From contig CAZHGK010000006.1 in NCBI GenBank assembly GCA_964532095.1, forward strand, positions 1 through 42,013: 42,013 bases of DNA, in the 5' to 3' direction. This stretch comes from an uncultured Planctomycetales bacterium (lineage in GTDB: Bacteria; Omnitrophota; Gorgyraeia; Zapsychrales; Fredricksoniimonadaceae). The notes under the pieces are model-generated. The model saw nothing but the letters and a program-made list of their open reading frames with translations, was not told the origin of the DNA and made no database searches. This document shows, piece by piece, positions 869-42,013 of the stretch (positions within the stretch are counted from its first letter, which is position 1; each line of letters opens with the position of its first letter). Both the position numbers and the translations under genes were made by a program.

Positions 869-911
869 TATCATAAATAAGCAGTAGTATTATGCTAGAA
901 GGAGCATATTT

Positions 912-1959: not shown

Positions 1960-2005
1960 AAGAATTTATTTTATTAATTAATCCGTTGTCGTAAAATTAT
2001 ATCCA

Positions 2006-2761
2006 ATGTCCAAATATTACAATTCCCAAAGAACGCGTAATATGTATGATCCCAGCTCAACCAAGCCTTTTCGTATTAGCCGCTCCAAGATTGATTTGTT
2101 CCTGAATTGCCCCAAGTGTTTTTATTTAGATAGGCGTTTAGGAATTGGCCAGCCTCCGAGTTATCCTTTTAATCTCAATTCAGCTGTAGATGCTTTGCTT
2201 AAAAAGGAATTCGACCTTTATCGTGCTAAGAATGAAGCTCATCCTTTAATGAAAGCCGCAGGTCTTGATGCAGTGGTATTTAATCATCCTCAGATAGATG
2301 AATGGCGCGATGCGCTTCGAGGAGGCATCACCTATGCCTATCCTGCTACAAATCTGCTATTAACTGGCGGGGTGGATGATGTTTGGGTAAACGCGCAAGG
2401 TGAGCTGATCATAGTGGATTATAAAGCTACATCTAAGGCGGATGGTGTAAGCCTTGATGCCGACTGGCAAATAGGCTACAAGCGCCAGATGGAAATTTAT
2501 CAATGGTTGTTTCGTAAGAATGATTTTAAGGTCAATGAGATTGGTTATTTTGTCTATTGCAACGGATTAACCAACGGGGAAGCTTTTAACAATCGATTAG
2601 ATTTTGACATCACTCTAATTGTTTACAAAGGCAACGACAACTGGGTGGATGATGCCGTTAAAAGGCTGTATACTTGTTTGCAATCTGATGAGATGCCAGA
2701 GTCGGGGGATGATTGTCAGTTTTGTCAATATAGGGATGCGGTACGATTTGTTTCTAAATAA
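2006..2761 (+). CDS. PD-(D/E)XK nuclease, Cas4/AddB-like with Cys cluster
   Basis: Motifs GVDDVW, IVDYKAT (D..[DE]xK) and QMEIYQW (QxxxY). N-terminal CPKC and C-terminal CQFC suggest an Fe-S cluster as in Cas4-type nucleases. Confidence 0.75.
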   Translation: MSKYYNSQRTRNMYDPSSTKPFRISRSKIDLFLNCPKCFYLDRRLGIGQPPSYPFNLNSAVDALLKKEFDLYRAKNEAHPLMKAAGLDAVVFNHPQIDEWRDALRGGITYAYPATNLLLTGGVDDVWVNAQGELIIVDYKATSKADGVSLDADWQIGYKRQMEIYQWLFRKNDFKVNEIGYFVYCNGLTNGEAFNNRLDFDITLIVYKGNDNWVDDAVKRLYTCLQSDEMPESGDDCQFCQYRDAVRFVSK

Positions 2762-2934
2762 GCAGAGCAATTTACGTCCTGTAATAGAAGTTACAGGAAG
2801 TGACAAGAGTTGCGAGAATTAGGACTTAACCAATATCAACTGTTCAGTTTTAAATAAGGATTATCAGCTGGTGAATAAACCAGTGGTTATTGACGTATAA
2901 AGTTTATCGGGCGGGCATATCAATAGCACGTTAT

Positions 2935-2975
2935 GTCCACCCGGTAAGAGTCTAAAACAAGACAAAAGGGTGGAC
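2935..2975 (+). promoter_or_regulatory. hsdR leader hairpin occluding the ribosome-binding site
   Basis: A perfect 8-bp inverted repeat, GTCCACCC (2935-2942) and GGGTGGAC (2968-2975). The second arm is the purine-rich tract 5-12 nt upstream of the hsdR ATG at 2980. Confidence 0.35.
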
Positions 2976-2979
2976 AATA

Positions 2980-5900
2980 ATGGCATTTAACGAAAATACC
3001 AGAGTAAAAATTCCTGCCATTTTGCACCTATGCCGTTTGGGATATCAGTATATTTCGTTATCTGATGCCAAATGGGATATTCACACCAATATCTTCACAG
3101 ATATTTTTTCCGCCAGCATTAAAGCGATCAACTCTGATAAGCAATTAGAAGATAGTGATATTAAGAAGGTTCTTGAAGATATTTCCTTGTGTCTAGACAA
3201 CGAGGATTTAGGGGAAGCTTTTTATAAGCTTATTACAGGGACAGCGGGAATTAAGTTGATCGATTTTAATGATTTTAGCAAGAATAGTTTTCATGTTGTC
3301 ACAGAGCTAACCTATAAAAATAGGGATGATGAATTTAGGCCGGACATAACTCTTTTAATAAACGGAATGCCGCTAGCGTTTATTGAAGTCAAGAAACCCA
3401 ACAATCACGAAGGGATACTAGCTGAGAGGGAGCGGATTAATACAAGGTTTAAGAATAAAAAGTTTAGAAGGTTTATTAACATTTCACAGTTATTGGTCTT
3501 TTCCAACAATATGGAATATGACCAAGATTCGATTGAACCCATTCAGGGTGCTTTTTACGCATCGCCTTCTTATGGGGATGCAATCTTCAACTGCTTTAGG
3601 GAAGAAGAACCAGAACCAATCTGTTCATTTGCAGATGAAGATGATGCGGTTGAGAATTTTATTCTAAAAGATAATAATCTCTCTGCGATTAAACACTCCT
3701 CAGAATTTCTAACAAACAAATCTTTGAATACCCCAACGAATAGAATCATCTCATCGCTATTTTGTCGCGAACGGTTCTCGATGCTCTTAAAATATTGTAT
3801 TGCATATGTTCAAGAGTCAAAGGGAATAGAGAAGCACATCATGCGATATCCGCAGTTATTTGCCATGAAGGCGATTGCTCACAAGATCGACAAGGGGATA
3901 AAGAAGGGAATTATTTGGCATACGCAAGGCAGTGGTAAGACTGCATTGTCTTATTGTAACGTTCAATTCTTAACTGATTACTTCCAGAAAAAGCGTGTTG
4001 TGCCAAAGTTTTACTTTATTGTGGATCGTCTTGATTTAATGATTCAGGCCAAACGTGAATTCACGATCAGGGGACTGACAGTTACCACTGTCAATTCGAA
4101 AGATGAATTGTTAAACCATTTCAGGTTAAAGCAAGCCATTCATAATTTGTCCGGTAAGCGTGAGATTACGGTTGTTAATATTCAAAAATTCGAGAATGAT
4201 CCGGATCTTCTGCAGACCAATGATTATGATATCAGTATCCAACGTGTGTATTTTCTTGATGAAGTTCATCGAAGCTACAACCCCACCGGCAGTTTCTTGG
4301 CAAATCTTTTTAGTTCAGACAGAAACGCTATATTAATTGGTTTAACGGGAACCCCGCTTATTTTATCTGACAGACGTTCTCGGGATATTTTTGGAGACTA
4401 TATCCATAAATATTATTACAACGCCTCAATTGCTGATGGTTACACATTGCGATTGATACGAGAGGGGATTGAAACGAATTATAGAATTCAACTGCAACAA
4501 GCGCTTAAAGAAATTGAGATTCTTAAAGGTGATGTAGATCGGCGTGTTGTTTATGCTCATGAGAAATTTGTTGAGCCAATGCTGGGTTACATTATTCAAG
4601 ATTTTATTAAAAGCAGGATCCGTTTTGGTGATCATACCATTGGAGCCATGGTTGTTTGCGATAGCGCGGATCAGGCGAGAGAACTATTTGACATATTCGT
4701 TGGCAAATATAACCATGAGCAAGGAACAATTGAACCTGATCGTTCCATGCGTGTTGAAGATCCAACGCCAGAATATAAAGCATATCAACAAGAGCACGGT
4801 CATCTTGTCTGTTCTTTAATCTTGCATGATGTGGGATCAACGGATGACCGCAAGCAAGAGATCGATGATTTTAAAGAAGGCAAAATCGACATTTTGTTTG
4901 TATTCAACATGCTTCTGACAGGGTTTGATGCCAAGCGCTTAAAGAAGCTTTATTTAGGGCGCATCATTAAAGACCATAATTTGTTGCAAACCCTGACGCG
5001 TGTTAATCGTCCATATAAGAAATTCAGGTACGGATATGTGGTTGATTTTGCCGATATACGAAAAGAGTTTGAAGCGACTAATAAAGCTTATTTTGACGAA
5101 TTGCAGGCGGAGCTAGGGGATGAAATAAAGACGTATTCTAATCTTTTTAAATCAAAAGAAGAGATCGAGAATGAAATCGCCGATATAAAAGAAAAACTTT
5201 TTCATTATGATTTGCTTAATGCTGAAGTTTTCTCGCAACAAATAAGTCAGATTGAAGACCGCAATAAGGTTTTGGAAATCAAGAAGGCATTGGAAAGCGC
5301 GAGGAATCTATACAATATCATTCGACTCTTTGGTCACTATGAACTTCTTGAGAAGCTGGACTTTAAGAAATTAAATCAGCTTTATAACGAAACTGCTCGG
5401 CATCTTGATTTGCTTAATCTCAAGGAAACTGTCCAGAATAGTGTTGATACTACCAACTTGCTTAACGTAGCGCTGGAAAACGTAATTTTTATGTTTCGGA
5501 AAATTTCCGAAGAGGAAATGATTATTGCCGATCAGCTTAAAGATATGCTTCGAAAGACGCGTGAAGCATTAGGCAATAATTTTGATAAGAAAGATCCTGA
5601 ATTTGTATCTCTTTACGATGAATTAAAACGGTTATTTGATAAAAAGAATCTGGATGAAATTTCCCAAGAGCAAATGAAACAAAACATCGCCTCTTTACAG
5701 AAGATATTTGACAAGGTAAGTGAGCTTAATCGCCAGAACAATCTTCTTAAAGCAAAATACGAGAATGACGAGAAATATGCCCGCGTTCATAAAAGAATCT
5801 TGGAGAAAGGGTCAATCTCAAAACGGGAGAGTGATATTTGCAATGCCTTGATGGCTATAAAAAGTCAAGTTGATGAAAAAGTCCTCAGCAATACCAGAAT

Positions 5901-6057
5901 TCTAGATAATGAGAGTTATTTTAACGGCATGCTCTTTCCAATGACAATCAATGGATTTGAGAGTATCGATATTGAGCTTGATCCAGATTCAGCTGATTTT
6001 ATTAATTCCTCTGTGGCAAAAGAATATGTGAATGAGTACGAAGGAGTAGGTGTCTAA
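2980..6057 (+). CDS. hsdR: Type I restriction enzyme R subunit
   Basis: N-terminal PD-(D/E)XK nuclease (RPDITLL...FIEVKK). SF2 motor motifs HTQGSGKTALS, FLDEVHRS and GLTGTP. Long coiled C-terminus. Followed by hsdM and hsdS. Confidence 0.95.
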   Translation: MAFNENTRVKIPAILHLCRLGYQYISLSDAKWDIHTNIFTDIFSASIKAINSDKQLEDSDIKKVLEDISLCLDNEDLGEAFYKLITGTAGIKLIDFNDFSKNSFHVVTELTYKNRDDEFRPDITLLINGMPLAFIEVKKPNNHEGILAERERINTRFKNKKFRRFINISQLLVFSNNMEYDQDSIEPIQGAFYASPSYGDAIFNCFREEEPEPICSFADEDDAVENFILKDNNLSAIKHSSEFLTNKSLNTPTNRIISSLFCRERFSMLLKYCIAYVQESKGIEKHIMRYPQLFAMKAIAHKIDKGIKKGIIWHTQGSGKTALSYCNVQFLTDYFQKKRVVPKFYFIVDRLDLMIQAKREFTIRGLTVTTVNSKDELLNHFRLKQAIHNLSGKREITVVNIQKFENDPDLLQTNDYDISIQRVYFLDEVHRSYNPTGSFLANLFSSDRNAILIGLTGTPLILSDRRSRDIFGDYIHKYYYNASIADGYTLRLIREGIETNYRIQLQQALKEIEILKGDVDRRVVYAHEKFVEPMLGYIIQDFIKSRIRFGDHTIGAMVVCDSADQARELFDIFVGKYNHEQGTIEPDRSMRVEDPTPEYKAYQQEHGHLVCSLILHDVGSTDDRKQEIDDFKEGKIDILFVFNMLLTGFDAKRLKKLYLGRIIKDHNLLQTLTRVNRPYKKFRYGYVVDFADIRKEFEATNKAYFDELQAELGDEIKTYSNLFKSKEEIENEIADIKEKLFHYDLLNAEVFSQQISQIEDRNKVLEIKKALESARNLYNIIRLFGHYELLEKLDFKKLNQLYNETARHLDLLNLKETVQNSVDTTNLLNVALENVIFMFRKISEEEMIIADQLKDMLRKTREALGNNFDKKDPEFVSLYDELKRLFDKKNLDEISQEQMKQNIASLQKIFDKVSELNRQNNLLKAKYENDEKYARVHKRILEKGSISKRESDICNALMAIKSQVDEKVLSNTRILDNESYFNGMLFPMTINGFESIDIELDPDSADFINSSVAKEYVNEYEGVGV

Positions 6058-7679
6058 TGACTCAAGATATTATTTCAAAAACAAAAGCGTTAATTGATGG
6101 ACTTAAAGGCACGTGTGCCAATTATGGCCTTGGTAATGACGGCAATGAATACAAGATCATCACACAGGCGTTTCTTTATAAGTTTATGAACGATAAGTTT
6201 AGTTATGAAGTCAAAGAGCTTGATTCCAAGCTTAAGAATGCCGGGAATTGGGAACAGGAGATTGCGAAATATTCCGACAAGCAATATGATATGCTTCTTA
6301 AACGCATGGGCCCTGATAGCGCTAAGTTAAAAAGGGAACATTTCTTGTCGAACCTTCATAATAAACAAAACATAGAACAGTTTGCCAAGTTTTTTGATGA
6401 CACCTTGCGCGACATAGCCATTTTTAATAATGAAATTTTCTCGGTCAAGACTGGACGGGGAGCCAAGGTCACGTTGTTCGATGAATTAAGCAATTACATC
6501 ACAGATAGCTCCAAGCGGGATGATTTCTGCCGTGCCATTGTTAATCAGCTTATAAATTTTAGTTTTGAGAAGATTTTTGCGCAGAAGTTTGATTTCTTCT
6601 CGACCATATTTGAATACTTGATTAAAGATTACAACAAAGATGGTGGTGGTAAATACGCCGAATATTACACGCCCCATGCTGTTGCAAAGATCATGGCGGC
6701 CATTCTAGTGGATAAGCCGGTAAAGAATGTTACCTGTTATGATCCATCCGCGGGGTCTGGACAATTGCTTATGAATCTTGCACATGCGATAGGAGAGGAT
6801 CGTTGTACGATTTATTCACAGGATATTTCGCAGAAGTCATCAAGCATGTTGCGTTTGAATCTGATTTTAAATAATCTTGTCCATTCTATTCAAAACATTA
6901 TTCAAGAGAATACGTTGCTTAATCCATATCATAGGGTTGGCGACAAACTCATGACCTTTGATTACATCGTTTCAAATCCGCCGTTTAAGTTGGATTTTAG
7001 CGATTGGTGTGATGCTTTAGATACAAAGCAAAATCATGGTCGTTTTTTTGCCGGAATACCGAACATTCCTAAAAAAGATAAAGACAAAATGGCCATATAT
7101 TTGCTCTTTATCCAGCATATTATCTTTTCGCTTTCACCAAATGGTAAAGCGGCCATTGTCGTTCCAACAGGCTTTTTGACAGCCCAAAGTGGAATTGAGA
7201 AAAAGATTCGCGAGAAGTTAGTTGAAGAGAAGATGCTCCGTGGCGTTGTCTCAATGCCAAGTAATATTTTTGCCACAACGGGCACGAACGTATCAATTTT
7301 ATTCTTGGATGGTACCAATACAAAAGGTGATATTGTTTTGATGGACGCGTCGAAACTGGGCACCACTGTAAAAGAAGGCAAGAATCAAAAAACGCTACTT
7401 TCAGAAGCTGAAGAACTATTAATTATTGAAACCTTTAATAAGCACGAAGCCAAAGAAGATTTTACTGTAGTGGTTTCTTACGAGCAGATAAAAGAAAAGA
7501 ACTACAGCTTTAGTGCAGGGCAATACTTTGAAGTAAAAATTGACTATACTGACTTAACCCCTGCGGAATTTGAAACTAAAATTCATGGCTTTAAATCCAA
7601 CTTGGACAGCCTTTTTGCAGAATCAAAGACTTTAGAAAAAGAAATTCAGAAACAATTAAATGGGTTGAAGTATGAGTAA
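6057..7679 (+). CDS. hsdM: Type I restriction-modification N6-adenine DNA methyltransferase M subunit
   Basis: EYYTPHAV, DPSAGSG (SAM binding) and the NPPF catalytic motif. Its start overlaps the hsdR stop (TAATG). Confidence 0.95.
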   Translation: MTQDIISKTKALIDGLKGTCANYGLGNDGNEYKIITQAFLYKFMNDKFSYEVKELDSKLKNAGNWEQEIAKYSDKQYDMLLKRMGPDSAKLKREHFLSNLHNKQNIEQFAKFFDDTLRDIAIFNNEIFSVKTGRGAKVTLFDELSNYITDSSKRDDFCRAIVNQLINFSFEKIFAQKFDFFSTIFEYLIKDYNKDGGGKYAEYYTPHAVAKIMAAILVDKPVKNVTCYDPSAGSGQLLMNLAHAIGEDRCTIYSQDISQKSSSMLRLNLILNNLVHSIQNIIQENTLLNPYHRVGDKLMTFDYIVSNPPFKLDFSDWCDALDTKQNHGRFFAGIPNIPKKDKDKMAIYLLFIQHIIFSLSPNGKAAIVVPTGFLTAQSGIEKKIREKLVEEKMLRGVVSMPSNIFATTGTNVSILFLDGTNTKGDIVLMDASKLGTTVKEGKNQKTLLSEAEELLIIETFNKHEAKEDFTVVVSYEQIKEKNYSFSAGQYFEVKIDYTDLTPAEFETKIHGFKSNLDSLFAESKTLEKEIQKQLNGLKYE

Positions 7680-8793
7680 AGAAAATAGAAATGCTCAGCT
7701 TGGTGATATTTATGATTTCCAATATGGTATGGGGAATACAATTGAAGATATTGGTGGAGATTATCCAATTTACGGGAGTAATGGTGTTGTTGGTTTTACT
7801 AATGTTTATAACAGTGAAGATGCGCCAGTTATTGGTCATATTGGCGCCTACGCAGGAATCGTAAATTGGGCGACAGGAAAACATTTCGTTACATACAATG
7901 GTGTTATCTGTCGAATTAAAAAAGGAATAAACCCAAGATTTGGTTACTATTTACTCTTACATTCTAAACTTCAGAAAAGATTGAGAGGAAGTACACAACC
8001 GTTTATTTCCTATGATTTATTAGATGATGTAAGGATTTTTTTACCTGAAAAAGTAATTCAAGATAATATCGCCTCCGTTCTTTCCGCATTAGATTCCAAA
8101 ATTGAACTCAACAACCGCATCAATACTGAATTAGAAGCCATGGCCAAGACGCTTTATGATTACTGGTTTGTGCAGTTTGATTTTCCAGACAAAAACGGCC
8201 AGCCATATAAATCCAGTGGTGGGAAGATGGTTTGGAATTCGGAGTTAAAGCGTGAAATTCCAGAGGGGTGGGGAGCAGTTACAATAAAACAAATACTAGC
8301 TAAAGAGAGCTCCACAAAGAAAATTCAATCTTCAGAAATAAGACAAAATGGGGCATTTCCAGTCATTGATCAAAGCACGGACTTTATTGCTGGATATACA
8401 GATGACATAGAGTCGATCATAAATGTTGAAGAGCCAAGAATAATCTTCGGTGATCATACTCGGATTTTAAAGCTGATAAATTTTGATTTTGCTCGTGGGG
8501 CCGATGGAACTCAAGTAATGTTATCTAATAATCGGCGCATGCCGCAGCACCTTTTTTTTCATACCTTACTTAAGATCGATTTATCGAATTATGGCTATGC
8601 GCGACATTATAAGTTTCTTAAGGATCAAAGAATAATATTGCCCGATGAAGCGGTTGCTTCAACATTTAACGAGATGGTTTGTAAATTTTATGAACATATA
8701 AAACAGAACACGTTTCAGAATATTGAGCTTTCTGAACTCCGAGACTGGCTTCTTCCTATGCTTATGAACGGTCAGGTTAAGGTCAATATTTAG
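7672..8793 (+). CDS. hsdS: Type I restriction-modification specificity subunit
   Basis: Two target-recognition halves separated by the conserved central helix LDSKIELNNRINTELEAMAKTLYDYWFVQFDFP. A second conserved helix lies at the C-terminus. 8-nt overlap with hsdM. Confidence 0.9.
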   Translation: MSKENRNAQLGDIYDFQYGMGNTIEDIGGDYPIYGSNGVVGFTNVYNSEDAPVIGHIGAYAGIVNWATGKHFVTYNGVICRIKKGINPRFGYYLLLHSKLQKRLRGSTQPFISYDLLDDVRIFLPEKVIQDNIASVLSALDSKIELNNRINTELEAMAKTLYDYWFVQFDFPDKNGQPYKSSGGKMVWNSELKREIPEGWGAVTIKQILAKESSTKKIQSSEIRQNGAFPVIDQSTDFIAGYTDDIESIINVEEPRIIFGDHTRILKLINFDFARGADGTQVMLSNNRRMPQHLFFHTLLKIDLSNYGYARHYKFLKDQRIILPDEAVASTFNEMVCKFYEHIKQNTFQNIELSELRDWLLPMLMNGQVKVNI

Positions 8794-8802
8794 GGATACT
8801 GA

Positions 8803-10476
8803 ATGGCAAGGGTCTACGAATTAAAAATTAATAATTTCAGGGGGATTAAAAGCTTTTCCCAAAAATTCAATAAGCATTTTAATTGCATATTAGGTCGTGG
8901 CGACTCTTGTAAGACAACAATTTTAGATGCTATTGCTTATGTGTTATCTCCGAGTTGGAATCCTTCTTTTTATGATAGTGATTTTTATGGTGGGAATCCC
9001 AATGACCTTATAGTGATCGAAGCATCCTTAGTTACCGTCCCGAATGAATTGATAAATGAAGATAAGTACGGGCTTTACATTAGGGGGCTTGATAATAATG
9101 GCAATATACAGGATGAAGTACAAACTGATCATGAAAAAATTATGACGGTAAGGCTTGAAGTCGGAAAAGATTTAGAACCACAGTGGTACGTGATTAGTAA
9201 CAGACAAGACCCTATGAGAATGCCATCCGTAGATAGGGCAAAATTAAATGTATTCATGGTTTCTGATTATATTGATCGGCATTTTTCTTGGAGCAAAGGT
9301 AATCCTTTATATTCGATTTTAAAAGAACTGCCGTCTACTGCTGAAAAGAAAAACGACGTTATCATTGAGGCATTGCGTGAAGCGAAAGAAAAAATAGATC
9401 AGGAAAGTTTTAGTCAGTTTAATGATGTCACGAATCGCATAAAGAAAGTTTCATCAAATCTTGGTATTGATTTGTCTGGGGCAAAAACTACTATTGATTT
9501 CAGAGACGTGACCATAAAGGACGGGAGGGTCTGCCTTCATGATGGTGATGTTCCATTACGATTGAAAGGCAAAGGAACGAAAAGATTGATTTCAATAGCA
9601 ATACAAACGATCCTTGTTCAACAAGGTGGAATTATGTTGATTGATGAGGTGGAACAAGGGCTGGAACCTGACAGAGTTAAACATTTGGTCAGATCTTTAA
9701 AGAAAGATAATCCTGGTCAAATATTTATCACCACTCATTCAAGTGAAGCGATAACAGAGTTGGATATCGAGGATTTGGTTATTATAAACAATCAGGGAGG
9801 CGTTATTACGGCATCTGCTCCAAACAAAGATTTTCAGAACGTCGTTAGGGCCTGTCCAGAAGCTGGATTTGCAAAGAAGGTCATTGTTTGTGAGGGAAAA
9901 ACAGAAATAGGAATTTGTCGGGCGTTAGATAGTTATCGTAAAGATTCCGGCAAGGAGTACATGTCAGTAAAAGATTGCGTCTATGTTGATGGGGATGGCG
10001 GGAGCAATTTTACGGACAGGGCTTTAAAATTGAACGATTTTGGAAAAGACGTTGCTGTTTTCTGTGATTCAGATGCTGATAGCAATCTGAATCCTTCCAA
10101 AAGTGATTTAACTGCAAAGTCGATCAAGATATTTGATTGTGAAGCTGGTAATTCCATTGAAGCTCAGGCCTTTAATGATTTGCCATGGGACGGGATTAAA
10201 GAGCTTTTTTTGTATGGAGAGAAGATAACTTCAGAGGCAATCGTTTTAAACAGCATTAAAAGTGAGCATGGAAATGGTTTGTCTGATAATTGGAAAGATG
10301 TGGATGCCGCAAATACGCGGTTAGCTTTAGGGAAAGCCGCCAAAAATTGCAAATGGTTTAAGCGTATTGATCAGGGAGAATTTCTTGGGTCGGTCATTTT
10401 AAAATATTTGGGTGATATGAATAATAAAAAAATAAAAGAGCAGTTAGAAAACCTTTCAAATTGGATAGATGCATAA
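8803..10476 (+). CDS. OLD-family nuclease (ABC-type ATPase + Toprim), class 2 / GajA-like
   Basis: N-terminal ATPase motifs: degenerate P-loop GRGDSCKTT, signature-like KGKGTKRL, Walker B IMLIDEVEQGLEP, and TTHS. C-terminal Toprim motifs VIVCEGKTE and FCDSDAD. The next gene is a UvrD-like helicase. Confidence 0.8.
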   Translation: MARVYELKINNFRGIKSFSQKFNKHFNCILGRGDSCKTTILDAIAYVLSPSWNPSFYDSDFYGGNPNDLIVIEASLVTVPNELINEDKYGLYIRGLDNNGNIQDEVQTDHEKIMTVRLEVGKDLEPQWYVISNRQDPMRMPSVDRAKLNVFMVSDYIDRHFSWSKGNPLYSILKELPSTAEKKNDVIIEALREAKEKIDQESFSQFNDVTNRIKKVSSNLGIDLSGAKTTIDFRDVTIKDGRVCLHDGDVPLRLKGKGTKRLISIAIQTILVQQGGIMLIDEVEQGLEPDRVKHLVRSLKKDNPGQIFITTHSSEAITELDIEDLVIINNQGGVITASAPNKDFQNVVRACPEAGFAKKVIVCEGKTEIGICRALDSYRKDSGKEYMSVKDCVYVDGDGGSNFTDRALKLNDFGKDVAVFCDSDADSNLNPSKSDLTAKSIKIFDCEAGNSIEAQAFNDLPWDGIKELFLYGEKITSEAIVLNSIKSEHGNGLSDNWKDVDAANTRLALGKAAKNCKWFKRIDQGEFLGSVILKYLGDMNNKKIKEQLENLSNWIDA

Positions 10477-11894
10477 TGAATCATTCGGAGTTTATTTCTA
10501 AACCTAAAATTATGGTAATTGCTCCTGCTGGTTATGGAAAGACGCATGCCATTGCTGAATGTTTAAAACACACAAAAGGGAAGCAGCTGATTTTAACTCA
10601 TACGCATGCGGGAGTAGCTTCTTTAAAAGATAAAATACACGAGCTGGGCGTTGAAACAGATCGGTATCGCGTTGAGACTATTACTGGTTTTGCCCAGAAA
10701 TATGTTAAAGCTTTTTATTGCGGACAAGATGTGCCGGAGCAGGAGAATTCAGAAGCGTATTATCCGTTTTTAATCGAAAAAGCACGAATTATATTAAATA
10801 TGCTTCCTATTCGTAATGTTATTAAAGAGACATATTCAGGGTTATTTGTTGATGAATATCAGGATTGTACTAAGAATCAACATGATCTGATCGCCGTTTT
10901 GGTTGACATATTACCGACACGTATTTTAGGAGATTATCTTCAAGGAATTTTCGATTTTAAGGGGCAGGCACTGGTAGATTTTAATAGTGATTTACAAGGC
11001 TTTGAACGATACCCAGATTTAGAAAATCCATGGCGCTGGAAAAACACGAATCCCAATTTGGGTGATGAATTGAAAAAGATTAGAGTCAAGATCGAGGGTA
11101 AGGAAAATATAGATTTGAGTCTACACGAAGCGCATATTGAAGTCGTGCAGGCAGATGAACAGGATAAATTTACATACAATTCAAATTATAATAAAAAGAT
11201 CTGGGATTTGACCAAAGAGGACAATGTGCTAATTATGCATCCCGAAAGCGGCAGTCTTGCCGTAAGAAAAGATTTTGTAAGTCGATTTAAGAATGCCTTT
11301 GGTTTAATTGAAGCTATTGATCATAAGGATTTTTATGAGTTCTCGCGGAAGCTAGATTCAATAAGTATCAGCAATGTTTACGCTGTCATTTATAATTTAA
11401 TTCCTGAAGTATTTAACGGTACGTCGAGCAGGGATATATGGTTTAGTCAAAACGGCGTTAAAAATAAAAGAAATGTCAGTGACAAGGCTTTGATTGCTCC
11501 ATTAGTAGAGAATATTGCTGAATTGAAGCAAAAGATTTCTTTCGCGATGATCGCTAATGTTTTAAAGCAAGTCAAAGATTTGCCTGATATTAAGTGTTGG
11601 CGAACAGAGCTTTTTTGGGATTTATGTAAAGCGTTAGAGAAGGCCGATCATAAAAAGATTTCGGTGTACGAGGCAATGAAAGAAATAAGAAATGTTAAAA
11701 GAAAATTTGGGAGAAGAGTAAGTGGCAGATGTATCGGTACGACTTTATTAACAAAAGGACTTGAGTTTGATACGGTAGCTATATTGGATGCTCATAAATT
11801 TAGATGTCGCAAGAATTTTTATGTTGCGGTCACAAGGGCGTGTAAGAAATTGATAATTTTTACAAACAACAAGGTTATTTCGTTGTTAAATTAA
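10476..11894 (+). CDS. SF1 UvrD/PcrA-like helicase, GajB-like
   Basis: Motifs APAGYGKTH (I), FVDEYQD (II), GDYLQGIFDF (III), TKGLEFDTV (V), YVAVTRACKKLII (VI). The ATG at 10476 overlaps the upstream stop as TAATG; the ORF-track TTG at 10461 is the alternative start. Confidence 0.85.
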   Translation: MNHSEFISKPKIMVIAPAGYGKTHAIAECLKHTKGKQLILTHTHAGVASLKDKIHELGVETDRYRVETITGFAQKYVKAFYCGQDVPEQENSEAYYPFLIEKARIILNMLPIRNVIKETYSGLFVDEYQDCTKNQHDLIAVLVDILPTRILGDYLQGIFDFKGQALVDFNSDLQGFERYPDLENPWRWKNTNPNLGDELKKIRVKIEGKENIDLSLHEAHIEVVQADEQDKFTYNSNYNKKIWDLTKEDNVLIMHPESGSLAVRKDFVSRFKNAFGLIEAIDHKDFYEFSRKLDSISISNVYAVIYNLIPEVFNGTSSRDIWFSQNGVKNKRNVSDKALIAPLVENIAELKQKISFAMIANVLKQVKDLPDIKCWRTELFWDLCKALEKADHKKISVYEAMKEIRNVKRKFGRRVSGRCIGTTLLTKGLEFDTVAILDAHKFRCRKNFYVAVTRACKKLIIFTNNKVISLLN

Positions 11895-11899
11895 TTCTT

Positions 11900-12460
11900 A
11901 TGTTGACGCTTCGCTTAACCAGTAAAGCTTTGAATGAATTACCGCTCCCCAAGTCAGCCGTCTTGACCTTGCCCGAGCATGGGAGCGTGTTGGAAGATTG
12001 GTATGTGCATGTGTTTGTCCATGAAAAGCGGCGGCATTTGATGTTTACGCACGCGGGGTCGCTGGTGTCGTTTGTGGCATCCGGCGTTTATCAGCGTGAT
12101 ATGAAGGATTTGGAAAAGATTTTCAGGCGGGAGTTTAGCCGGTTTCTGGTGTTTGAGAAATTTGACCAGCAGGATATTTTGATGTTCCAATTAGCCTTGG
12201 GTGATATGCGTTTGGCCAAGACCATTGACCGCAGGGTCACAGGGTCGATGGTTCAACTCATTGAGAATTATAAATGGTATGTGAGCGACGCGTATAATCA
12301 TAAGGAGCATGCGCCAGAGGATTATGCGCTCTATGAATTAAACCGTATTCCCCTGGGGGCTTTAAAATATGCGTTTGCCATTGAAAATTTCCATAAAACC
12401 GTGGACGCGCTCAAAGGGTTTCACCACATCCCCGGGCAAGGGGTTGTGGGGTTGAATTAG
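11900..12460 (+). CDS. Hypothetical protein, compositionally foreign. It resembles an uncharacterised DUF-type family from memory (possibly DUF6933), unverified.
   Basis: 186-aa ORF starting 5 nt after the helicase stop. Its 5' third is about 50-60% G+C, against about 37% in the flanking genes. No motif I can assign. Confidence 0.65.
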   Translation: MLTLRLTSKALNELPLPKSAVLTLPEHGSVLEDWYVHVFVHEKRRHLMFTHAGSLVSFVASGVYQRDMKDLEKIFRREFSRFLVFEKFDQQDILMFQLALGDMRLAKTIDRRVTGSMVQLIENYKWYVSDAYNHKEHAPEDYALYELNRIPLGALKYAFAIENFHKTVDALKGFHHIPGQGVVGLN

Positions 12461-12471
12461 GAGATATTTAG

Positions 12472-13521
12472 ATGGATGAAACGACAAAATCAGAAATAAT
12501 TCTATATAAAACGGATGATGGCAAGGTAAAGCTAGAAGTCCGGCTTGAAAATGAAACAGTTTGGATGAGTCAGAAATTGATGGCTGAATTGTTTCAAAAA
12601 GATGTTCGTACCATTAATGAACATTTGAATAACATTTATGCAGAAGGTGAGCTTCAATCAAAAGCAACTATCCGGAAATTCCGGATAGTTCAAAAAGAAG
12701 GCGTTCGTGAAGTAGCTCGTGAAGTCGATTTTTATAATTTAGAGGTAATTATTGCGGTTGGTTACCGGGTCAAATCTCAGAGGGGTACCCAATTTAGACA
12801 GTGGGCGACCCAACGTCTTAATGAGTATTTGGTTAAAGGTTTTACCATGGACGATGATCGCCTCAAGGAAGGCGTAAATATTGGCTCTGATTATTTTGAT
12901 GAAATCCTCGAGCGTATCAGGGATATCCGCTCAAGTGAAAAACGATTTTATCAAAAAATACGGGATATTTATAAACTAGCAGTTGATTATGATCCTAAAG
13001 CTGAAGAAACTTTGGAATTTTTTAGGATAGTTCAGAATAAGCTGCATTTTGCTATTTCAGGAAAAACAGCCGCTGAATTGATTGCTGAACGTGCAGATTC
13101 GTCAAAACCCAATATGGGATTAACTTCTTGGAAAGGATCTAAGGTTCGTCCAGGAGATGTAATAATTGCTAAAAATTATCTTAATGCTACAGAAATTGAA
13201 GGTCTAAATCGAATTGTGACCATGTATCTGGATTATGCTGAAGATCAAGCCAAACGCCATAAGCAGATATTTATCAAGGACTGGCGGCAAAAGTTGGATG
13301 CTTTTCTTAAGTTCAATGAACGGGATATTTTGAATAATGCCGGGAAGGTGGCCAAAGAAGTTGCTGATAATTTAGCGCTCGAAGAGTACGAGCGTTTTAA
13401 TACAAAACGATTAAAGAAGGAAGTTAAAGACGAGACGCTAGCTGATGATGCAGAGTTCAAGTTGATCGAAGATACGATAAAGAAAATCCCCAAGACCAAA
13501 AAGCAAGCTAAAAAGCGCTAA
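12472..13521 (+). CDS. RhuM-family protein
   Basis: The N-terminal region ILYKTDDGKVKLEVRLENETVWMSQKLMAELF...VIIAVGYRVKSQRGTQFRQWATQRL matches my memory of the RhuM family, which often sits in type I R-M loci. GGAG lies 8 nt upstream of the ATG. Confidence 0.8.
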   Translation: MDETTKSEIILYKTDDGKVKLEVRLENETVWMSQKLMAELFQKDVRTINEHLNNIYAEGELQSKATIRKFRIVQKEGVREVAREVDFYNLEVIIAVGYRVKSQRGTQFRQWATQRLNEYLVKGFTMDDDRLKEGVNIGSDYFDEILERIRDIRSSEKRFYQKIRDIYKLAVDYDPKAEETLEFFRIVQNKLHFAISGKTAAELIAERADSSKPNMGLTSWKGSKVRPGDVIIAKNYLNATEIEGLNRIVTMYLDYAEDQAKRHKQIFIKDWRQKLDAFLKFNERDILNNAGKVAKEVADNLALEEYERFNTKRLKKEVKDETLADDAEFKLIEDTIKKIPKTKKQAKKR

Positions 13522-13658
13522 TAAACCATAAAAAGACCTATTACTTTTCATTTCTACAACTAGATATAATATATGTTATGTTAACCATTTATATAGGAAA
13601 TCGCTTGAATTAGCCTTTATGCTGTAGCTTTACTCTTCATTGGTTTTTTGCTTGAAAT

Positions 13659-14657
13659 TTACATCATTTGGTAGCGTGCTGCGCGGGTATTTCCCTTCTT
13701 AATCACTATCCCAGCCTTAACTAATGGCGCAATCAGCTGGTTCACTCTAGCTCGATTAATATCCATTATTTTGCTAATTTGGCTGGAACCTATATCTTCC
13801 TGTTTCTTTACTATTTCTAGTAATTCTTTTTGTTTTGGCGTCCATTGACCGCTATTAATTTTCATATTGGCCAATTGCTTACTTAACTGTTCAATGCTTT
13901 TTAAAAGACCTTGAGAAAAATAGTCAATCCAATAGGTATAATCACCATCCATATCATCGGTTTCTCGAAGCATTTGGTAGTATTTAGCACGATCTGCAGC
14001 AAAGTATTCATCCAGACCTAAAGAATATGTCGATTTATATCCTTGTTGTATCAAAATCCATTGTGACAAAGCTCTCGCCATCCTACCATTTCCATCTGTA
14101 AATGGATGAATCGTGACAAATTCATGATGAAAAATGGCGCTCAATACCACTGCGTCTTCGTTTTCGGCATTTTTAAGCCACGACAATAGTTTTTTCATTC
14201 GCTTTTTAACATCTTGAGGTTTTGGAGGTGTAAAAATTATTTTGCGTCTTGCATTAACTACGTAATTTTGTATTTTTCTCCAATGACCACTGCGTTTAGG
14301 TGAAAGCAAATTTTTAGTCATTAGAGCATGTAAGTTAAGAATTCGGTTGGAATTTAAAGGGAGTTTAGAGTTTTTAATTACCCATTGCATGGCATTAATG
14401 CAGTTTCTGACTTCAAGTTTTTGGTCTTCTTGAGCAATAACGTCTTTTCCTTCAACAAGCGCAGAGACTTGAGCTAAGGATAAGGTGTTTCCTTCAATCC
14501 ACGTAGAAGAATGAATATCTCGACTGAATGCTTGTTGGCTGATTTCCTTCCAGATCGATGGGTTTAGGGAATATTTTTCCAGAGCTTTAGATAGTAAAGC
14601 AATTCGCTGGAGATTGTTAACAAAATAGTTTGTTATGCGATAAGTTGGTTTAAACAT
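13659..14657 (-). CDS. Class II Fic protein (AMP-transferase type) with C-terminal winged-helix domain
   Basis: Canonical Fic motif HPFTDGNGRMARAL. An N-terminal inhibitory-helix motif STWIEGN ([ST]xxxE[GN]). The C-terminal segment QISKIMDINRARVNQLIAPLVKAGIV looks like a wHTH. Confidence 0.9.
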   Translation of the reverse strand: MFKPTYRITNYFVNNLQRIALLSKALEKYSLNPSIWKEISQQAFSRDIHSSTWIEGNTLSLAQVSALVEGKDVIAQEDQKLEVRNCINAMQWVIKNSKLPLNSNRILNLHALMTKNLLSPKRSGHWRKIQNYVVNARRKIIFTPPKPQDVKKRMKKLLSWLKNAENEDAVVLSAIFHHEFVTIHPFTDGNGRMARALSQWILIQQGYKSTYSLGLDEYFAADRAKYYQMLRETDDMDGDYTYWIDYFSQGLLKSIEQLSKQLANMKINSGQWTPKQKELLEIVKKQEDIGSSQISKIMDINRARVNQLIAPLVKAGIVIKKGNTRAARYQMM

Positions 14658-14674
14658 GTATAAAGCATATCACA

Positions 14675-14730
14675 TTGTATAGGAATTGTATAGGTTGTTG
14701 TATAGGTTGTTGTATAGGTTGTTGTATAGG
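14675..14730. repeat. Iteron-like tandem array, 5 x TTGTATAGG
   Basis: Copies start at 14675, 14686, 14698, 14710 and 14722 (spacing 11, 12, 12, 12). The last three are perfect 12-mers TTGTTGTATAGG. GGCCGGCC follows. The array fills the 82-nt gap between the M48 stop and the Fic start. Confidence 0.9.
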
Positions 14731-36056: not shown

Positions 36057-36395
36057 CTATTTGATTTTTTCTAGTACCGACAGATCTTCAGTATCTGACG
36101 GTGTAAGATTGACGAATTTAACCCTCACATCCGAGGCCGACATTGTTGGCCGTTTGGTATTTTCAACCACGACCGCAGTGAGCTCTAATATTCTCGGCGC
36201 GAGCTGAGGAATTCTAATTTGTAATTTTAAAACATCATCCTTCTGGATATTAATATGCGCAACAAACTTAGTACCGCCGGTGCTGATATTCTCAATCGTT
36301 GTCATGTCCCATTTTGGAGGATTATCCGCAGCATTACAAAACCTAACATTTAAAGGTTTGGTAATTCGTTTATGCTGGCGATTTTCGTCGGTCAT
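36057..36395 (-). CDS. PilZ-domain protein
   Basis: RQHKR (RxxxR) and NISTGG ([DN]xSxxG) c-di-GMP-binding motifs. Confidence 0.8.
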   Translation of the reverse strand: MTDENRQHKRITKPLNVRFCNAADNPPKWDMTTIENISTGGTKFVAHINIQKDDVLKLQIRIPQLAPRILELTAVVVENTKRPTMSASDVRVKFVNLTPSDTEDLSVLEKIK

Positions 36396-36748
36396 AACTG
36401 TTGTTGGGCGTAGGTTTCAATTTTCTTTAGAATTTCCAACGCTGATTGCGAAGGTTGTTCAAATTGCACCCGTATTTCGTAAATTAAACCTTCAATCTTG
36501 ACAATGCTTTGTAAGACGCTGCCTTCCAAAAGTATTTTATCTGTAAGAAATGGTGTCGATAATTCGATCGAAACCTTGCTGTTTTCAACAATGGGTGCTG
36601 TGGCAATAAAGCTAACGCCTCCTTGGCTTATGTTATTAAGCTGGGAAACCTCAAATTTTTCCTTGGCATTATCCGTTAACCAATAGCTTAGGATAAAGTT
36701 ACGGTAGATGCGAGGATGCTGGCGTCTGTCTTTAAAGTCTTCTGGCAT
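36392..36748 (-). CDS. PilZ-domain protein
   Basis: RQHPR and NISQGG motifs. The start is set at the first ATG (36748) downstream of the tRNA-derived repeats. The longer ORF-track version runs through the tRNA-linked element and was discarded. Confidence 0.75.
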   Translation of the reverse strand: MPEDFKDRRQHPRIYRNFILSYWLTDNAKEKFEVSQLNNISQGGVSFIATAPIVENSKVSIELSTPFLTDKILLEGSVLQSIVKIEGLIYEIRVQFEQPSQSALEILKKIETYAQQQL

Positions 36749-36764
36749 AGGTGTAAAAGTCGGG

Positions 36765-36789
36765 TTATAAAGTCGGGACGGTGGGGCTT
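36765..36789 (-). repeat. Direct duplicate of the tRNA-Pro 3' end plus trailer
   Basis: The 25-nt TTATAAAGTCGGGACGGTGGGGCTT is identical to 36893-36917, at an offset of exactly 128 bp. A third partial copy, AAAGTCGGG, lies at 36755-36763. Confidence 0.95.
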
Positions 36790-36892
36790 CTTCTCCCCCG
36801 GTCTGACATTCGTCAGACCTCCTCCGAAGCCGGCCAGTCTCGCTTGTACCTGTGGCGCTCGACTTGGCTTCAAGCCCCGACAAAATATTATT
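36790..36892 (-). other. Structured ~100-nt element between tRNA-Pro and its 3'-end duplicate
   Basis: Minus-strand stems: GGGGCTT/AAGCCCC closing stem, CCA-GTC/GAC-TGG, CCG-GCTT-CGG, and GGTCTGAC-GAAT-GTCAGACC. Its 5' part, GGGGCTTGAA, is the reverse complement of the tRNA T-loop/stem TTCAAGCCCC. Confidence 0.6.
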
Positions 36893-36900
36893 TTATAAAG

Positions 36901-36975
36901 TCGGGACGGTGGGGCTTGAACCCACGACCTCTTGAACCCCATTCAAGTGCGCTAATCCAACTGCGCTACGTCCCG
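36901..36975 (-). tRNA. tRNA-Pro (anticodon GGG)
   Basis: Hand-folded cloverleaf: acceptor CGGGACG/CGTCCCG with A73, D-stem GCGC/GCGC, anticodon arm CTTGA-ATGGGGT-TCAAG (U33, GGG, G37), T-arm GTGGG-TTCAAGC-CCCAC. CCA is not encoded. Confidence 0.9.
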
Positions 36976-37009
36976 AACTCTAATATATAAAGTCTTTATA
37001 AAGAGCGGT

Positions 37010-37038
37010 ATTTTAACAGCTAAGGCAAATAGCGTCAA
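37010..37038 (-). promoter_or_regulatory. Sigma70-like promoter for tRNA-Pro
   Basis: On the minus strand: TTGACG (37038-37033), a 17-nt spacer, TAAAAT (37015-37010). This lies about 35 nt upstream of the tRNA 5' end. Confidence 0.55.
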
Positions 37039-37055
37039 CACATTAGAAAATTACG

Positions 37056-38060
37056 CTATTCGGCCTTGAGTTGGCGACCCATAAGGTCTGCGAGGGCTTT
37101 TTTAGGATTTTTACGCTGGAAAATGATCCGGTACACTTCTTCGGAGATAGGCATGGGAATCTTCATTTTAGCACTTAAACGGTAAACAGCCTTGGCGGTT
37201 TCTACTCCTTCTGCAACCGCATGCATGGATTTGGTAATAGTTGCAATGCTTTTGCCCCGGCCTAAGGCTTCTCCTACAGTACGGTTGCGGCTATTAGGAC
37301 TAAAACATGTGGTGGCTAAATCTCCTAATCCTGTTAAACCATAAAATGTTTCTTTTTTACCACCCAGGGCAATTCCCAGTCTGGCGATTTCAGCTAAACC
37401 ACGGGTTAAAATCGCAGCTTTGGCATTGGTCCCTAATCCTAAACCATCACAGACGCCACAGGCCAAAGCAATGACGTTTTTAATGCTGCCTCCGATTTCA
37501 ACACCAACGACATCAGTATTTGTATAAATTCTAAATTCTTGGGAATTAAACACATGGGCGATGGCTAATGCTAATTTTCCATCAGGACAGGCAACAACTG
37601 CTGTGGTGGCCTTACCCGTTGCTGTTTCACCAGCAATAGTTGGTCCTGACAGTACCGCTAATCGCACCTTACCTAAGGTTGAGGTGATAATTTGAGACAT
37701 TCGTTTAAAGGAAACAGGATCAATCCCTTTGATCACACTTAAAAATACTTTAGATGAGTAATCTGAATTTTTAATTTTTAATAATGTTTGCTCTAAATAT
37801 TGGGATGGGCAGGCTAAAACAACAAGCTCAGCGCCTTGAAGCGCTTCATCAATATTCGCAGTTAATGTAATTGAGGTTAGAATTTTAACATTGGGCAAGA
37901 ATCGCGAATTGATGCGTGTTTTTCTGACCTGGGCGACATAATCAGCAAAGGCGCCCCATAAAGTAACTTTGTATTTTTTTCGGGCTAGGTGAACTGCTAA
38001 GGTTGTTCCCCATCCTCCGTCGCCAATGATGGCGATTTTCTTAAATGAATTTGTTTTCAT
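37056..38060 (-). CDS. gpsA: NAD(P)H-dependent glycerol-3-phosphate dehydrogenase
   Basis: KIAIIGDGGWGTTLA Rossmann motif and a GpsA-like body. The start is set at the ATG at 38060 (MKTNSF...), which removes the overlap with the upstream TPR gene. Confidence 0.9.
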   Translation of the reverse strand: MKTNSFKKIAIIGDGGWGTTLAVHLARKKYKVTLWGAFADYVAQVRKTRINSRFLPNVKILTSITLTANIDEALQGAELVVLACPSQYLEQTLLKIKNSDYSSKVFLSVIKGIDPVSFKRMSQIITSTLGKVRLAVLSGPTIAGETATGKATTAVVACPDGKLALAIAHVFNSQEFRIYTNTDVVGVEIGGSIKNVIALACGVCDGLGLGTNAKAAILTRGLAEIARLGIALGGKKETFYGLTGLGDLATTCFSPNSRNRTVGEALGRGKSIATITKSMHAVAEGVETAKAVYRLSAKMKIPMPISEEVYRIIFQRKNPKKALADLMGRQLKAE

Positions 38061-41823: not shown

Positions 41824-41852
41824 TATATATTGGAGCGGGCTTAAGAGAATCG
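41824..41852 (-). repeat. Direct duplicate of the tRNA-Gly 3' end (T-arm 3' half, acceptor, CCA, trailer)
   Basis: TATATAT-TGGAGCGGGC-TTA-AGAGAATCG compared with 41951-41979 TATATATC-TGGAGCGGGC-GG-AGAGAATCG. The TGGAGCGGGC cores are exactly 128 bp apart (41831 and 41959). Confidence 0.9.
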
Positions 41853-41950
41853 GCACCTTCGCTCACTTTGTTCGCTTCAGGTTGGCCCCCCGCTCTATGA
41901 ATTGCTCTTATTCATCGCAATTCATAAACAGAGCTCCTTTCGATTCTCTT
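41853..41950 (-). other. Structured ~100-nt element between tRNA-Gly and its 3'-end duplicate
   Basis: On the minus strand, AAGAGAATCG (plus-strand 41941-41950) pairs perfectly with CGATTCTCTT in the duplicate. There is an internal 13-bp hairpin CTCT..ATGAATTGC/GCAATTCAT-AGAG. GAGCGGG can pair with CCCGCTC like an acceptor stem. Confidence 0.55.
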
Positions 41951-41958
41951 TATATATC

Positions 41959-42013
41959 TGGAGCGGGCGGAGAGAATCGAACCCTCGCTACTAGCTTGGA
42001 AGGCTAGAGTTCT
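41959..42013 (-). tRNA. tRNA-Gly (anticodon UCC), 5' part cut by the window edge
   Basis: The visible 3' 55 nt fold as anticodon arm CTAGC-CTTCCAA-GCTAG (U33, TCC), T-arm GAGGG-TTCGATT-CTCTC, acceptor 3' strand CGCCCGC, discriminator T, and an encoded CCA. Confidence 0.85.

Follow-up and report, generated by a model that had tools for sequence, protein, structure and literature searches.

Since the late 1970s, RtT repeats have stood as a curiosity of the tyrT operons of enterobacteria, and to our knowledge no role has been firmly assigned to them. In Escherichia coli K-12 (NC_000913.3), four units of this family (RF00391) are found behind and between tyrT and tyrV, each of them ending in AATCCTTCCCCCACCACCA, a copy of 19 nt that runs from the T-loop to the end of tRNA-Tyr. 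The consensus in Rfam, where the family is filed under the class 'Cis-reg', shows a closing helix (GgGaaGG/CCuuCcC), with the last ~9 nt (CCACCACCA), including the CCA, left unpaired. According to a passage of PMC3318445 that cites Bosl and Kersten (1991), one of the repeat units in the tyrT operon encodes an rtT RNA, and the statements on this RNA in the same article and in bioRxiv 10.1101/2024.07.17.603846 have it released from the tyrT transcript; the preprint mentions a role in tyrT transcript processing, and possibly in the stringent response, by a mode of action that it gives as unknown. A comparable arrangement, named E1, is described here behind the tRNA-Pro(GGG) gene of an uncultured Omnitrophota bacterium (GenBank contig CAZHGK010000006.1, positions 1 to 42,013; this whole stretch of 42,013 nt is hereafter called the window). 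E1 represents a small new family, absent from Rfam, of a known but little-understood kind, the RtT-type tRNA-trailer elements.

The tRNA-Pro gene is the sole complete tRNA in the window, and ARAGORN and Rfam both place its 3′ boundary at 36900/36901. Taking the discriminator A36901 as the end of the tRNA, its last 17 nt and 8 nt of trailer form a direct repeat of 25 nt, perfectly conserved in a second copy at a start-to-start spacing of 128 nt according to the repeat search. The features of the unit, all of them on the minus strand, are as follows:

36901..36975, minus strand: tRNA-Pro(GGG), called by ARAGORN and by Rfam RF00005 (62.3 bits), which reads ...CGTCCCGA, then C, then TTT
36893..36917, minus strand: copy 1 of the direct repeat, comprising the final 17 nt of the tRNA, which begin at the T-loop AAGC, plus the 8-nt trailer (CTTTATAA); repeat search, 100% identity
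36879..36892, minus strand: AT-rich spacer (AATAATATTTTGTC) between trailer and element, read from the sequence
36783..36878, minus strand: E1 core, from P1 to P1, 96 nt; covariance model R1, 119 bits
36878..36872 with 36789..36783, minus strand: P1, the closing helix
36868..36833, minus strand: P2, a long hairpin
36829..36826 with 36793..36790, minus strand: P3, CUUC/GAAG, which stacks on P1
36819..36800, minus strand: P4 hairpin, 8 bp with the loop GAAU
36765..36789, minus strand: direct repeat copy 2, the tRNA 3′-end mimic, in which AAGCCCC is the 3′ strand of P1, and ACCGTCCCGAC plus TTTATAA are the unpaired tail and the trailer copy
36756..36764, minus strand: third, partial copy (CCCGACTTT), 9 nt, reading AAAGTCGGG on the plus strand; repeat search

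A first-pass annotation of this DNA had already claimed a 25-nt copy of the tRNA-Pro 3′ end plus trailer 128 nt downstream, and this was borne out by the repeat search and by the 18-mer AAGCCCCACCGTCCCGAC from the repeat, which occurs exactly twice in the 42 kb with 3 mismatches permitted (chance expectation 0.01). The third copy reported there is equally real, at an offset of 13 nt instead of 14, and may be what is left of another unit, or of the trailer as it originally was. The inverted T-arm copy does exist as well (arms 36865-36878 and 36911-36924, 14 nt, 93% complementary), although it starts after the 14-nt AT-rich spacer and not at the beginning of the enclosed sequence, as had been supposed. 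Such an AT-rich spacer also precedes the element in two related loci (L081 and L130, described below), and the longer spacer of a third one (L126) contains a 15-bp hairpin. The stretch between the two repeat copies spans 103 nt (36790-36892) and is devoid of integrase, as the annotation had put it, with no recombinase detected by Pfam in the 34 large open reading frames (ORFs) of the window that were scanned. From the fold drawn at that time, the 8-bp hairpin GGTCTGAC/GTCAGACC, found once in the window, and the long hairpin are kept, whereas the closing stem and the third hairpin have to be replaced by P1 (GGGGCUU/AAGCCCC) and P3 (CUUC/GAAG).

Neither the tRNA-Pro of the window (36893-36901) nor its mimic (36765-36773) encodes CCA, both reading ...CCCGAC followed by TTT, and the CA of the CCA is absent from all three 3′-end copies in the window. 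In contrast, the tRNA-Pro genes of relatives all encode ...CCCGACCA, and the tRNA-Gly of the window itself encodes CCA. The loss of CA common to the three copies indicates that these were made, or made alike, after that change.

A scan of metagenome contigs for an exact 20-mer of the E1 core returned 11 stretches, of which three (L124, L126 and L130) contain the whole element, the other eight being chance matches in G+C-rich DNA. The first of them belongs to a second carrier species at tRNA-Pro (Hom protein P0005, 87% identity; loci L081, L083, L085 and L124), where the tRNA is followed by a full copy, a tRNA-end repeat and, where PilZ starts, another copy cut short within the P4 hairpin, that is, a tandem of 1.7 copies with a period of 124 nt; the mimic of L081 matches the end of the tRNA-Pro perfectly over 20 nt. 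In L126 (Omnitrophica WOR_2 bacterium GWA2_47_8), the element lies ~50 nt behind tRNA-His(GTG) and ends in AAATCCCGTCACCCACCCCA, the tRNA-His ending in AAATCCCGTCGCTCACCCCA, with an exact run of 10 nt and 2 mismatches in the last 16 nt. In L130, where the nearest named relatives of the adjacent kinase are Omnitrophica, the element ends in the tRNA-Ser-like GAATCCCTGCCTCTCCGCCA, and an identical 20-mer tail is found 123 nt upstream, closing GGGATT-AATAG-AATCCC (1343-1381, minus strand); from its sequence, this upstream unit looks like one whose core was deleted, with P1 left as a small hairpin. L130 also shows an adjoining insertion sequence of the IS256/Mutator type (1489-3007) with 13-nt inverted ends, and a further degenerate copy (GAACCCTGCCTCT) near the start of the transposase. 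The period of the element is ~123-128 nt at all four independent loci, and the family is tied to tRNA 3′ ends, not to one operon. Model R1, run over the window and ~0.47 Mb of related loci, recovered the known copies only; a 17-mer of the core gave 23 matches in viral contigs, all due to chance and most of them in G+C-rich sequence without further similarity.

The secondary structure of E1 was examined by covariation in the four full copies (window, L124/L081, L126 and L130), for which RNAalifold and separate pair counts agree on a three-way junction formed by P1, P2 and P3/P4. In this set, 98.4% of the cells are paired, versus 23-43% when the partners are slid, and double-change (compensatory) pairs amount to 8 versus 0, respectively, the observed values being attained by 0 of 500 shuffles. 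P4 appears in three compensatory variants, GGUCUGAC/GUCAGACC, GGUCCGAC/GUCGGACC and AGUCUGAC/GUCAGACU, around a constant GAAU loop, and P3 changes in a compensatory way between CUUC/GAAG and CUCC/GGAG. P1 is 100% paired, with 3 covarying pairs among its variants GGGGCUU/AAGCCCC, GGGAUUU/AAAUCCC and GGGAUUC/GAAUCCC. The 3′ strand of this helix corresponds to the first 7 nt of the tRNA copy, the rest of which is an unpaired tail, and its 5′ strand, located outside the direct repeat, tracks the local T-loop/stem, with GGGGCUU facing AAGCCCC in the window, GGGAUUU facing AAAUCCC in L081 and L126, and GGGAUUC facing GAAUCCC in L130. The repeat is, in consequence, an integral 3′ boundary of a conserved folded element. 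No pair of P2 is changed on both sides across the four copies, and this invariance points to a sequence-specific partner. The mean column identity of the core is ~92% across four Omnitrophota lineages, its G+C content reaches 64% in a genome of 40%, and the minimum-energy folds of the single sequences reproduce the consensus structure in 3 of the 4 copies (window, L126 and L130). A region of 135 nt around the element of the window folds with -52.8 kcal/mol (z = -4.2 versus shuffles).

Some other identities were considered for the element itself. A tRNA-like fold, with an acceptor-like stem and a T-arm-like hairpin, would be only 69% and 85% paired across the family, and the same bases are used by P1/P3 at 100% and with covariation; neither ARAGORN nor the Rfam tRNA models call any cloverleaf other than the true tRNA. 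Among 4227 Rfam covariance models at E <= 10, chance-level microRNA matches were the only ones obtained for E1, so that no family besides tRNA matches this region. The sole reading frame through E1 is a 163-aa extension of the first PilZ protein from a TTG start, judged unlikely, and two separate 1-nt gaps in the copy of L126 exclude a coding reading.

The same data bear on two rival explanations. An ordinary attachment (att) scar, in other words the remnant of a larger island or prophage after deletion of its interior, would account for the direct repeat of the tRNA 3′ end, a classical integration footprint, as well as for the sister species with empty sites. However, a unit of ~123-128 nt with a core of ~92% identity and covarying helices is present at four independent loci, on which random deletions would not converge, and an unrelated unit of identical period follows the other tRNA of the window. 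One metagenome scan and the searches of phage, plasmid and viral sequences turned up no larger version bounded by such repeats. The remnant considered in the first-pass annotation is then unsupported, the repeat being a structural part of a unit that is equally small and integrase-free at the four loci, and an att scar can be regarded as largely excluded.

On the other hand, E1 could be a functionless by-product of local duplication or template switching, its conservation reflecting recency and G+C-rich self-complementarity. Odd duplications are indeed known from other tRNA clusters of these bacteria (a truncated 5′ half of tRNA-Gly in L001/L005, a repeated trailer hairpin in L006), and the L130 unit with a deleted core would fit such a process. 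But the core is 92% conserved when Hom and ThrC are only 85% identical for the sole comparable pair (window and L079), and the substitutions are concentrated in compensatory pairs, which makes a neutral origin improbable.

The genomic context of E1 in the window includes two further features on the same strand:

37010..37038, minus strand: sigma-70-like promoter upstream of tRNA-Pro (TTGACG, 17-nt spacer, TAAAAT, with TG before the -10 hexamer)
36392..36748, minus strand: first PilZ gene, 118 aa (Pfam PilZ, 3e-7), whose ATG lies 16 nt past repeat copy 2

The order of genes on the minus strand is gpsA, the promoter-like site, tRNA-Pro, E1, two PilZ genes, hom and thrC, and the operon continues with a gene for a DFP-domain protein, phosphoglycerate mutase, lysC, a citramalate/isopropylmalate-synthase-like gene and valS. 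The consensus scan and Pfam thus agree with the annotated layout of a promoter and a tRNA ahead of the first PilZ gene of a long hom operon, the promoter-like TTGACG-17-TAAAAT (10 of 12 consensus matches) being a pattern match alone. No terminator-like site was detected in 36300-37300, and none between the tRNA or the element and PilZ.

The relatives of the GpsA protein assign the window to Candidatus Omnitrophota. The order tRNA-Pro(GGG), PilZ, hom and thrC is kept in relatives, the closest Hom proteins being 80-88% identical to that of the window. Exact matches to the first PilZ protein and to Hom of the window were sought in public assemblies and none was on record, and the nearest Hom relatives within its clade (P0003 and P0017) yielded no usable DNA upstream. 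A search among these relatives revealed empty sites in L002, L078, L088/L089, L090, L092 and L093, where only 17-27 nt separate the tRNA from the ATG of PilZ. Such a gap is too short to accommodate a separate promoter, which indicates that tRNA and operon form one transcript, and that the E1 of the window lies, therefore, inside a transcribed unit and in sense orientation. In a tree of Hom proteins, an empty species falls among the filled ones. A tandem pair of PilZ genes precedes hom in both tRNA-Pro carrier species (window 36057-36748; L079 2271-2995), and the relatives with empty sites all have a single one. Another relative, L095, has a different insert of ~90 nt between tRNA-Pro and PilZ (938-1029), a long perfect hairpin (GGCTTTAACTGAAGGA...TCCTTCAGTTAAAAGCC) without a tRNA-end copy.

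With the tRNA on one side, an amino-acid biosynthesis operon starting on the other and no terminator in the interval, the position of E1 would also suit a cis-acting leader of the PilZ-hom-thrC-lysC operon, either an attenuator, a sensor or a structure sequestering the tRNA 3′ end, which may control read-through or mRNA stability. Fold predictions of the full transcript show that the duplication lets the 5′ strand of the tRNA pair with the distal copy, and the filing of RtT under 'Cis-reg' goes in the same direction. Nevertheless, from locus to locus the element is followed by different genes (PilZ-hom, one for a DUF3617 protein, or one for a heptose-phosphate kinase with its own promoter-like site), which makes a leader specific to the hom operon unlikely; moreover, most relatives run the same operon without the element, and neither a terminator/anti-terminator alternative nor a U-tract after any helix could be found. 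A leader function for E1 seems, consequently, a poor candidate.

The evidence favours instead the structured tRNA-trailer RNA that the first-pass annotation had listed among its interpretations, given the ~92% mean column identity of the core across four lineages, the compensatory changes and the position inside a co-transcript. As far as can be judged from the sequence, E1 is on balance probably a co-transcribed tRNA-trailer RNA, excised by tRNA-end processing, and gained or lost via recombination between the repeats. In order, the unit of ~115 nt comprises its AT-rich spacer, then 7 nt able to pair with the 3′ half of the T-loop/T-stem of the neighbouring tRNA, the G+C-rich core and the copy of the tRNA 3′ end, with a tail made of the acceptor 3′ strand, the discriminator, the CCA where encoded and the trailer. 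The promoter ahead of tRNA-Pro would drive a single tRNA-E1-PilZ-hom transcript, in which a signal made of a tRNA 3′ end and an AU-rich trailer would flank E1 on both sides, and with such a signal on either side the enzymes that release tRNA 3′ ends would also cut after the mimic. Cuts at both sites would free E1 as a discrete small RNA, and the one after the mimic would give the downstream mRNA the same 5′ junction as in the species free of the element. The duplicated ends would likewise favour unequal crossing-over and gene conversion at this locus, which would explain the tandem forms, the precise losses and a mimic that stays identical to the tRNA.

Several points weigh against this explanation. 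The covariation statistics are thin, with four full copies, and part of the P1 signal could stem from an origin in the tRNA sequence instead of selection for pairing. Both strands give about equally good minimum-energy folds, the strand of E1 having been assigned from its context and from a few G-U pairs, and transcription, processing and a stable product of E1 are all inferred. Homology with RtT, whose plan E1 shares, cannot be shown. Two loci (L079/L080) contain a truncated copy only, with a Hom protein identical to that of L081/L083/L085/L124, and this short form could reflect a true polymorphism for presence or absence, or else a collapse of the 124-nt tandem during assembly. A perfect 15-bp hairpin (ATATTTTGATCTGGGC TTTT GCCCAGATCAAAATAT) is present between tRNA-His and the element in L126 (5676-5712); if it were a terminator, that copy would need its own promoter. 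L130 has no tRNA, and L133, a relative of that locus, has neither tRNA nor element. Finally, one core is found at three tRNA ends and is patchy among close species, a distribution that vertical descent plus unequal crossing-over explains poorly, so that some mobility seems to be needed. The same core at Pro, His and Ser-like ends, together with the interleaved filled and empty species, makes movement between tRNA loci likely, and a trans-acting recombinase is the obvious candidate, none having been found in the window, L126 or L130.

Taken to its full extent, that mobility would turn E1 into a miniature mobile element moved in trans by a tRNA-targeting recombinase or by some other mechanism aimed at the T-loop. 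Tyrosine integrases classically target tRNA genes, with att sites from the T-loop to past the gene end, and the repeat of the window, which reaches from the T-loop across the tRNA end and 8 nt beyond it, would then correspond to attL and attR with a crossover in the T-loop, E1 being comparable to a cis-mobilisable element (CIME) that keeps its att sites only; the folded core may be cargo, or may be needed for recombination as RNA or single-stranded DNA. The precise empty sites in sister species, the interleaving in the Hom tree, the existence of tandem arrangements and the presence of one core at tRNA-Pro, tRNA-His and a tRNA-Ser-like end in different Omnitrophota are all consistent with such an element. 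The same can be said of the units of 128-nt period carried by both tRNAs of the window, and of its three 3′-end copies lacking the CA of the CCA, as if recently copied from the resident site. However, neither integrase nor transposase nor reverse transcriptase was revealed by the Pfam scan of the 42-kb window, no integrase was found at L124, L126 or L130, where the IS256-type transposase of L130 is the only enzyme of this kind, and neither blastn against phage and plasmid collections nor the viral search retrieved anything similar. A circle of 128 bp is, besides, very small for recombinase-mediated excision and integration. Moreover, the internal 5′ strand of P1 matches each local tRNA, which simple transposition would not yield, and RNA-type compensatory changes are unexpected in the arms of a double-stranded, protein-binding att site. 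A mobile element of this kind is accordingly considered rather unlikely as a full explanation, and the excised trailer RNA is retained as the preferred one.

The duplication of tRNA 3′ ends is not restricted to tRNA-Pro. When 35 distinct tRNA loci of Omnitrophota DNA were compared for other tRNAs with a duplicated 3′ end, direct plus inverted tRNA-end copies downstream were present only in the complete E1 copies and in a second element of the window, E2, behind tRNA-Gly; in L079, whose unit is truncated, the inverted copy occurs without the direct one. The features of E2 are:

42013..41959, minus strand: partial tRNA-Gly(UCC) at the end of the window, with a 3′ end equal to that of the tRNA-Gly of relatives
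41831..41958, minus strand: E2 unit, 128 nt, behind tRNA-Gly (repeat spacing 128/127 plus inverted arms)
41950..41941 with 41852..41843, minus strand: E2 P1, AAGAGAAUCG with CGAUUCUCUU, read from the sequence
41842..41831, minus strand: E2 tail AAGCCCGCUCCA, which copies the tRNA-Gly 3′ end

The 5′ strand AAGAGAAUCG is complementary to the T-loop/stem of tRNA-Gly, CGAUUCUCU, and the end of E2, CGATTCTCT-TAA-GCCCGCTCCA, is a near copy of the tRNA-Gly end including the CCA, with matching trailers. A three-way junction is also predicted for E2, with a fold of -43.1 kcal/mol and z = -4.6. By sequence comparison, its core shows no relation to that of E1, and E2 matched no family of Rfam, with chance-level microRNA matches only at E <= 10. 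Empty sites for E2 were found in L002-L005.

Further peculiarities were noticed in the tRNA clusters of relatives. In L006, the trailers of tRNA-Tyr and tRNA-Gly (~3289-3340 and ~3430-3480) share a repeat of ~45 nt (TTCTACTT.G.CCTTAAATTTTCATGTAAGGGCTTCGTAG) with a hairpin; this is a different tRNA-trailer repeat, and it lacks a tRNA-end copy. The spacer between tRNA-Tyr and tRNA-Gly in L001 (~4070-4115) and L005 (~3195-3260) has a truncated 5′ half of tRNA-Gly (GCGGGAGTAGTTCAGTGGTA...CCTTC) followed by unrelated sequence, with an insert after GGTA in the copy of L005, which indicates that these clusters undergo partial duplications. In L002, the equivalent spacer (4160-4282), of 124 nt and G+C-rich, contains GCGAAGCGCGAAAGCGCTGAG, close to the GCGAAGCGCGCAGCGCTGAG of E. 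coli RtT, which is also behind tRNA-Tyr; this may be a chance G+C-rich hairpin.

In a broader sense, E1, E2 and the RtT of E. coli could be imagined as one general, unrecognised class of miniature mobile elements, made of RNA or single-stranded DNA, that propagate themselves and find tRNA genes by guide pairing. Elements of such a class would encode no protein; their 5′ strand may act as the guide by pairing with the target's T-loop and T-stem, and insertion may copy the target 3′ end, the closing helix and the tRNA-end processing signal being acquired automatically. This is a speculative extension to which little credence can be given at present.

Apart from the tRNA loci, the far side of the window (900-14700) harbours a defence island with the following genes:

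912-1959: helix-turn-helix plus Fic pair
2006-2761: PD-(D/E)XK/Cas4-like nuclease
2980-8793: type I restriction-modification genes hsdR, hsdM and hsdS
8803-10476: Gabija GajA (7.6e-177)
10461-11894: Gabija GajB (5.1e-135)
DUF6933 protein, within the same island
12472-13521: RhuM/PDC-S05
13659-14657: SoFic

A last question to be considered is what these elements offer for the study of tRNA loci. They provide a comparative handle on the purpose of the duplicated tRNA end, be it to signal processing, to protect the tRNA fold or to allow recombination, on the punctuation of bacterial tRNA-mRNA co-transcripts, and on the gain and loss of short structured inserts at tRNA genes. They also call for caution with island-finding software, for which every tRNA 3′ end that occurs in duplicate counts as an att site.

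With regard to known systems, the tRNA att sites of tyrosine integrases and the CIMEs resemble E1 in the direct repeat of a tRNA 3′ end, from the T-loop to a few nt past the gene, in the empty sites of relatives and in tandem accretion. Unlike those islands, E1 encloses ~100 nt with no gene and no integrase nearby, its repeat is half of a covarying helix, and its size is equally small at every locus. A different parallel is offered by the 3′ external transcribed spacer (3′ETS) of leuZ in E. coli, reportedly described by Lalaouna et al. in 2015 as a functional small RNA cut from the trailer of a tRNA transcript by tRNA-processing nucleases. These 3′ETS RNAs are said to act through base-pairing, as sponges of small RNAs, and we know of none that duplicates the tRNA 3′ end or pairs back onto such a duplicate to form a closing helix. 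In the favoured reading, E1 would likewise be a trailer RNA excised from a tRNA transcript.

The closest counterpart is nonetheless RtT, with several differences. RtT units measure 178 nt versus 123-128 nt for E1, their hosts are Enterobacteria and not Omnitrophota, and they are located behind tRNA-Tyr, whereas E1 is found at Pro, His and a Ser-like end, and E2 at Gly. RtT has a small reading frame, tpr, without a counterpart in E1, and the mimic of the window lacks the CCA, unlike RtT. The cores differ in sequence and fold, sharing UCGAGCGCCA and a few short words. Homology was rejected as a candidate explanation: RF00391 gave no match to E1 at E <= 10, R1 scores the RtT units with ~7 bits (E ~0.5), and, despite the common UCGAGCGCCA, Smith-Waterman comparison versus shuffles yielded p = 0.09-0.15. 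In any case, the plan is the same in both. RtT and E1 occupy a same-strand position directly 3′ of a tRNA gene (for E1, in the window, L081 and L126), and their units end with the 3′-terminal ~17-19 nt of the tRNA from the T-loop onwards (25 nt including trailer in the window, 19 nt in E. coli). In the two families, a 5′ segment pairs with the start of the tRNA copy and closes a branched, G+C-rich fold that leaves the acceptor strand unpaired. RtT is arranged in tandem, with its repeat extending into the trailer; the E1 family shows 1.7 copies in L081/L083/L085/L124, the truncated copy alone in L079/L080, where assembly collapse may be the cause, and one unit plus a 9-nt remnant in the window. 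An RtT-like design is now present in a distant uncultured phylum, with unrelated cores and at four kinds of tRNA, which suggests that it constitutes a recurrent solution and not the accident of one locus.

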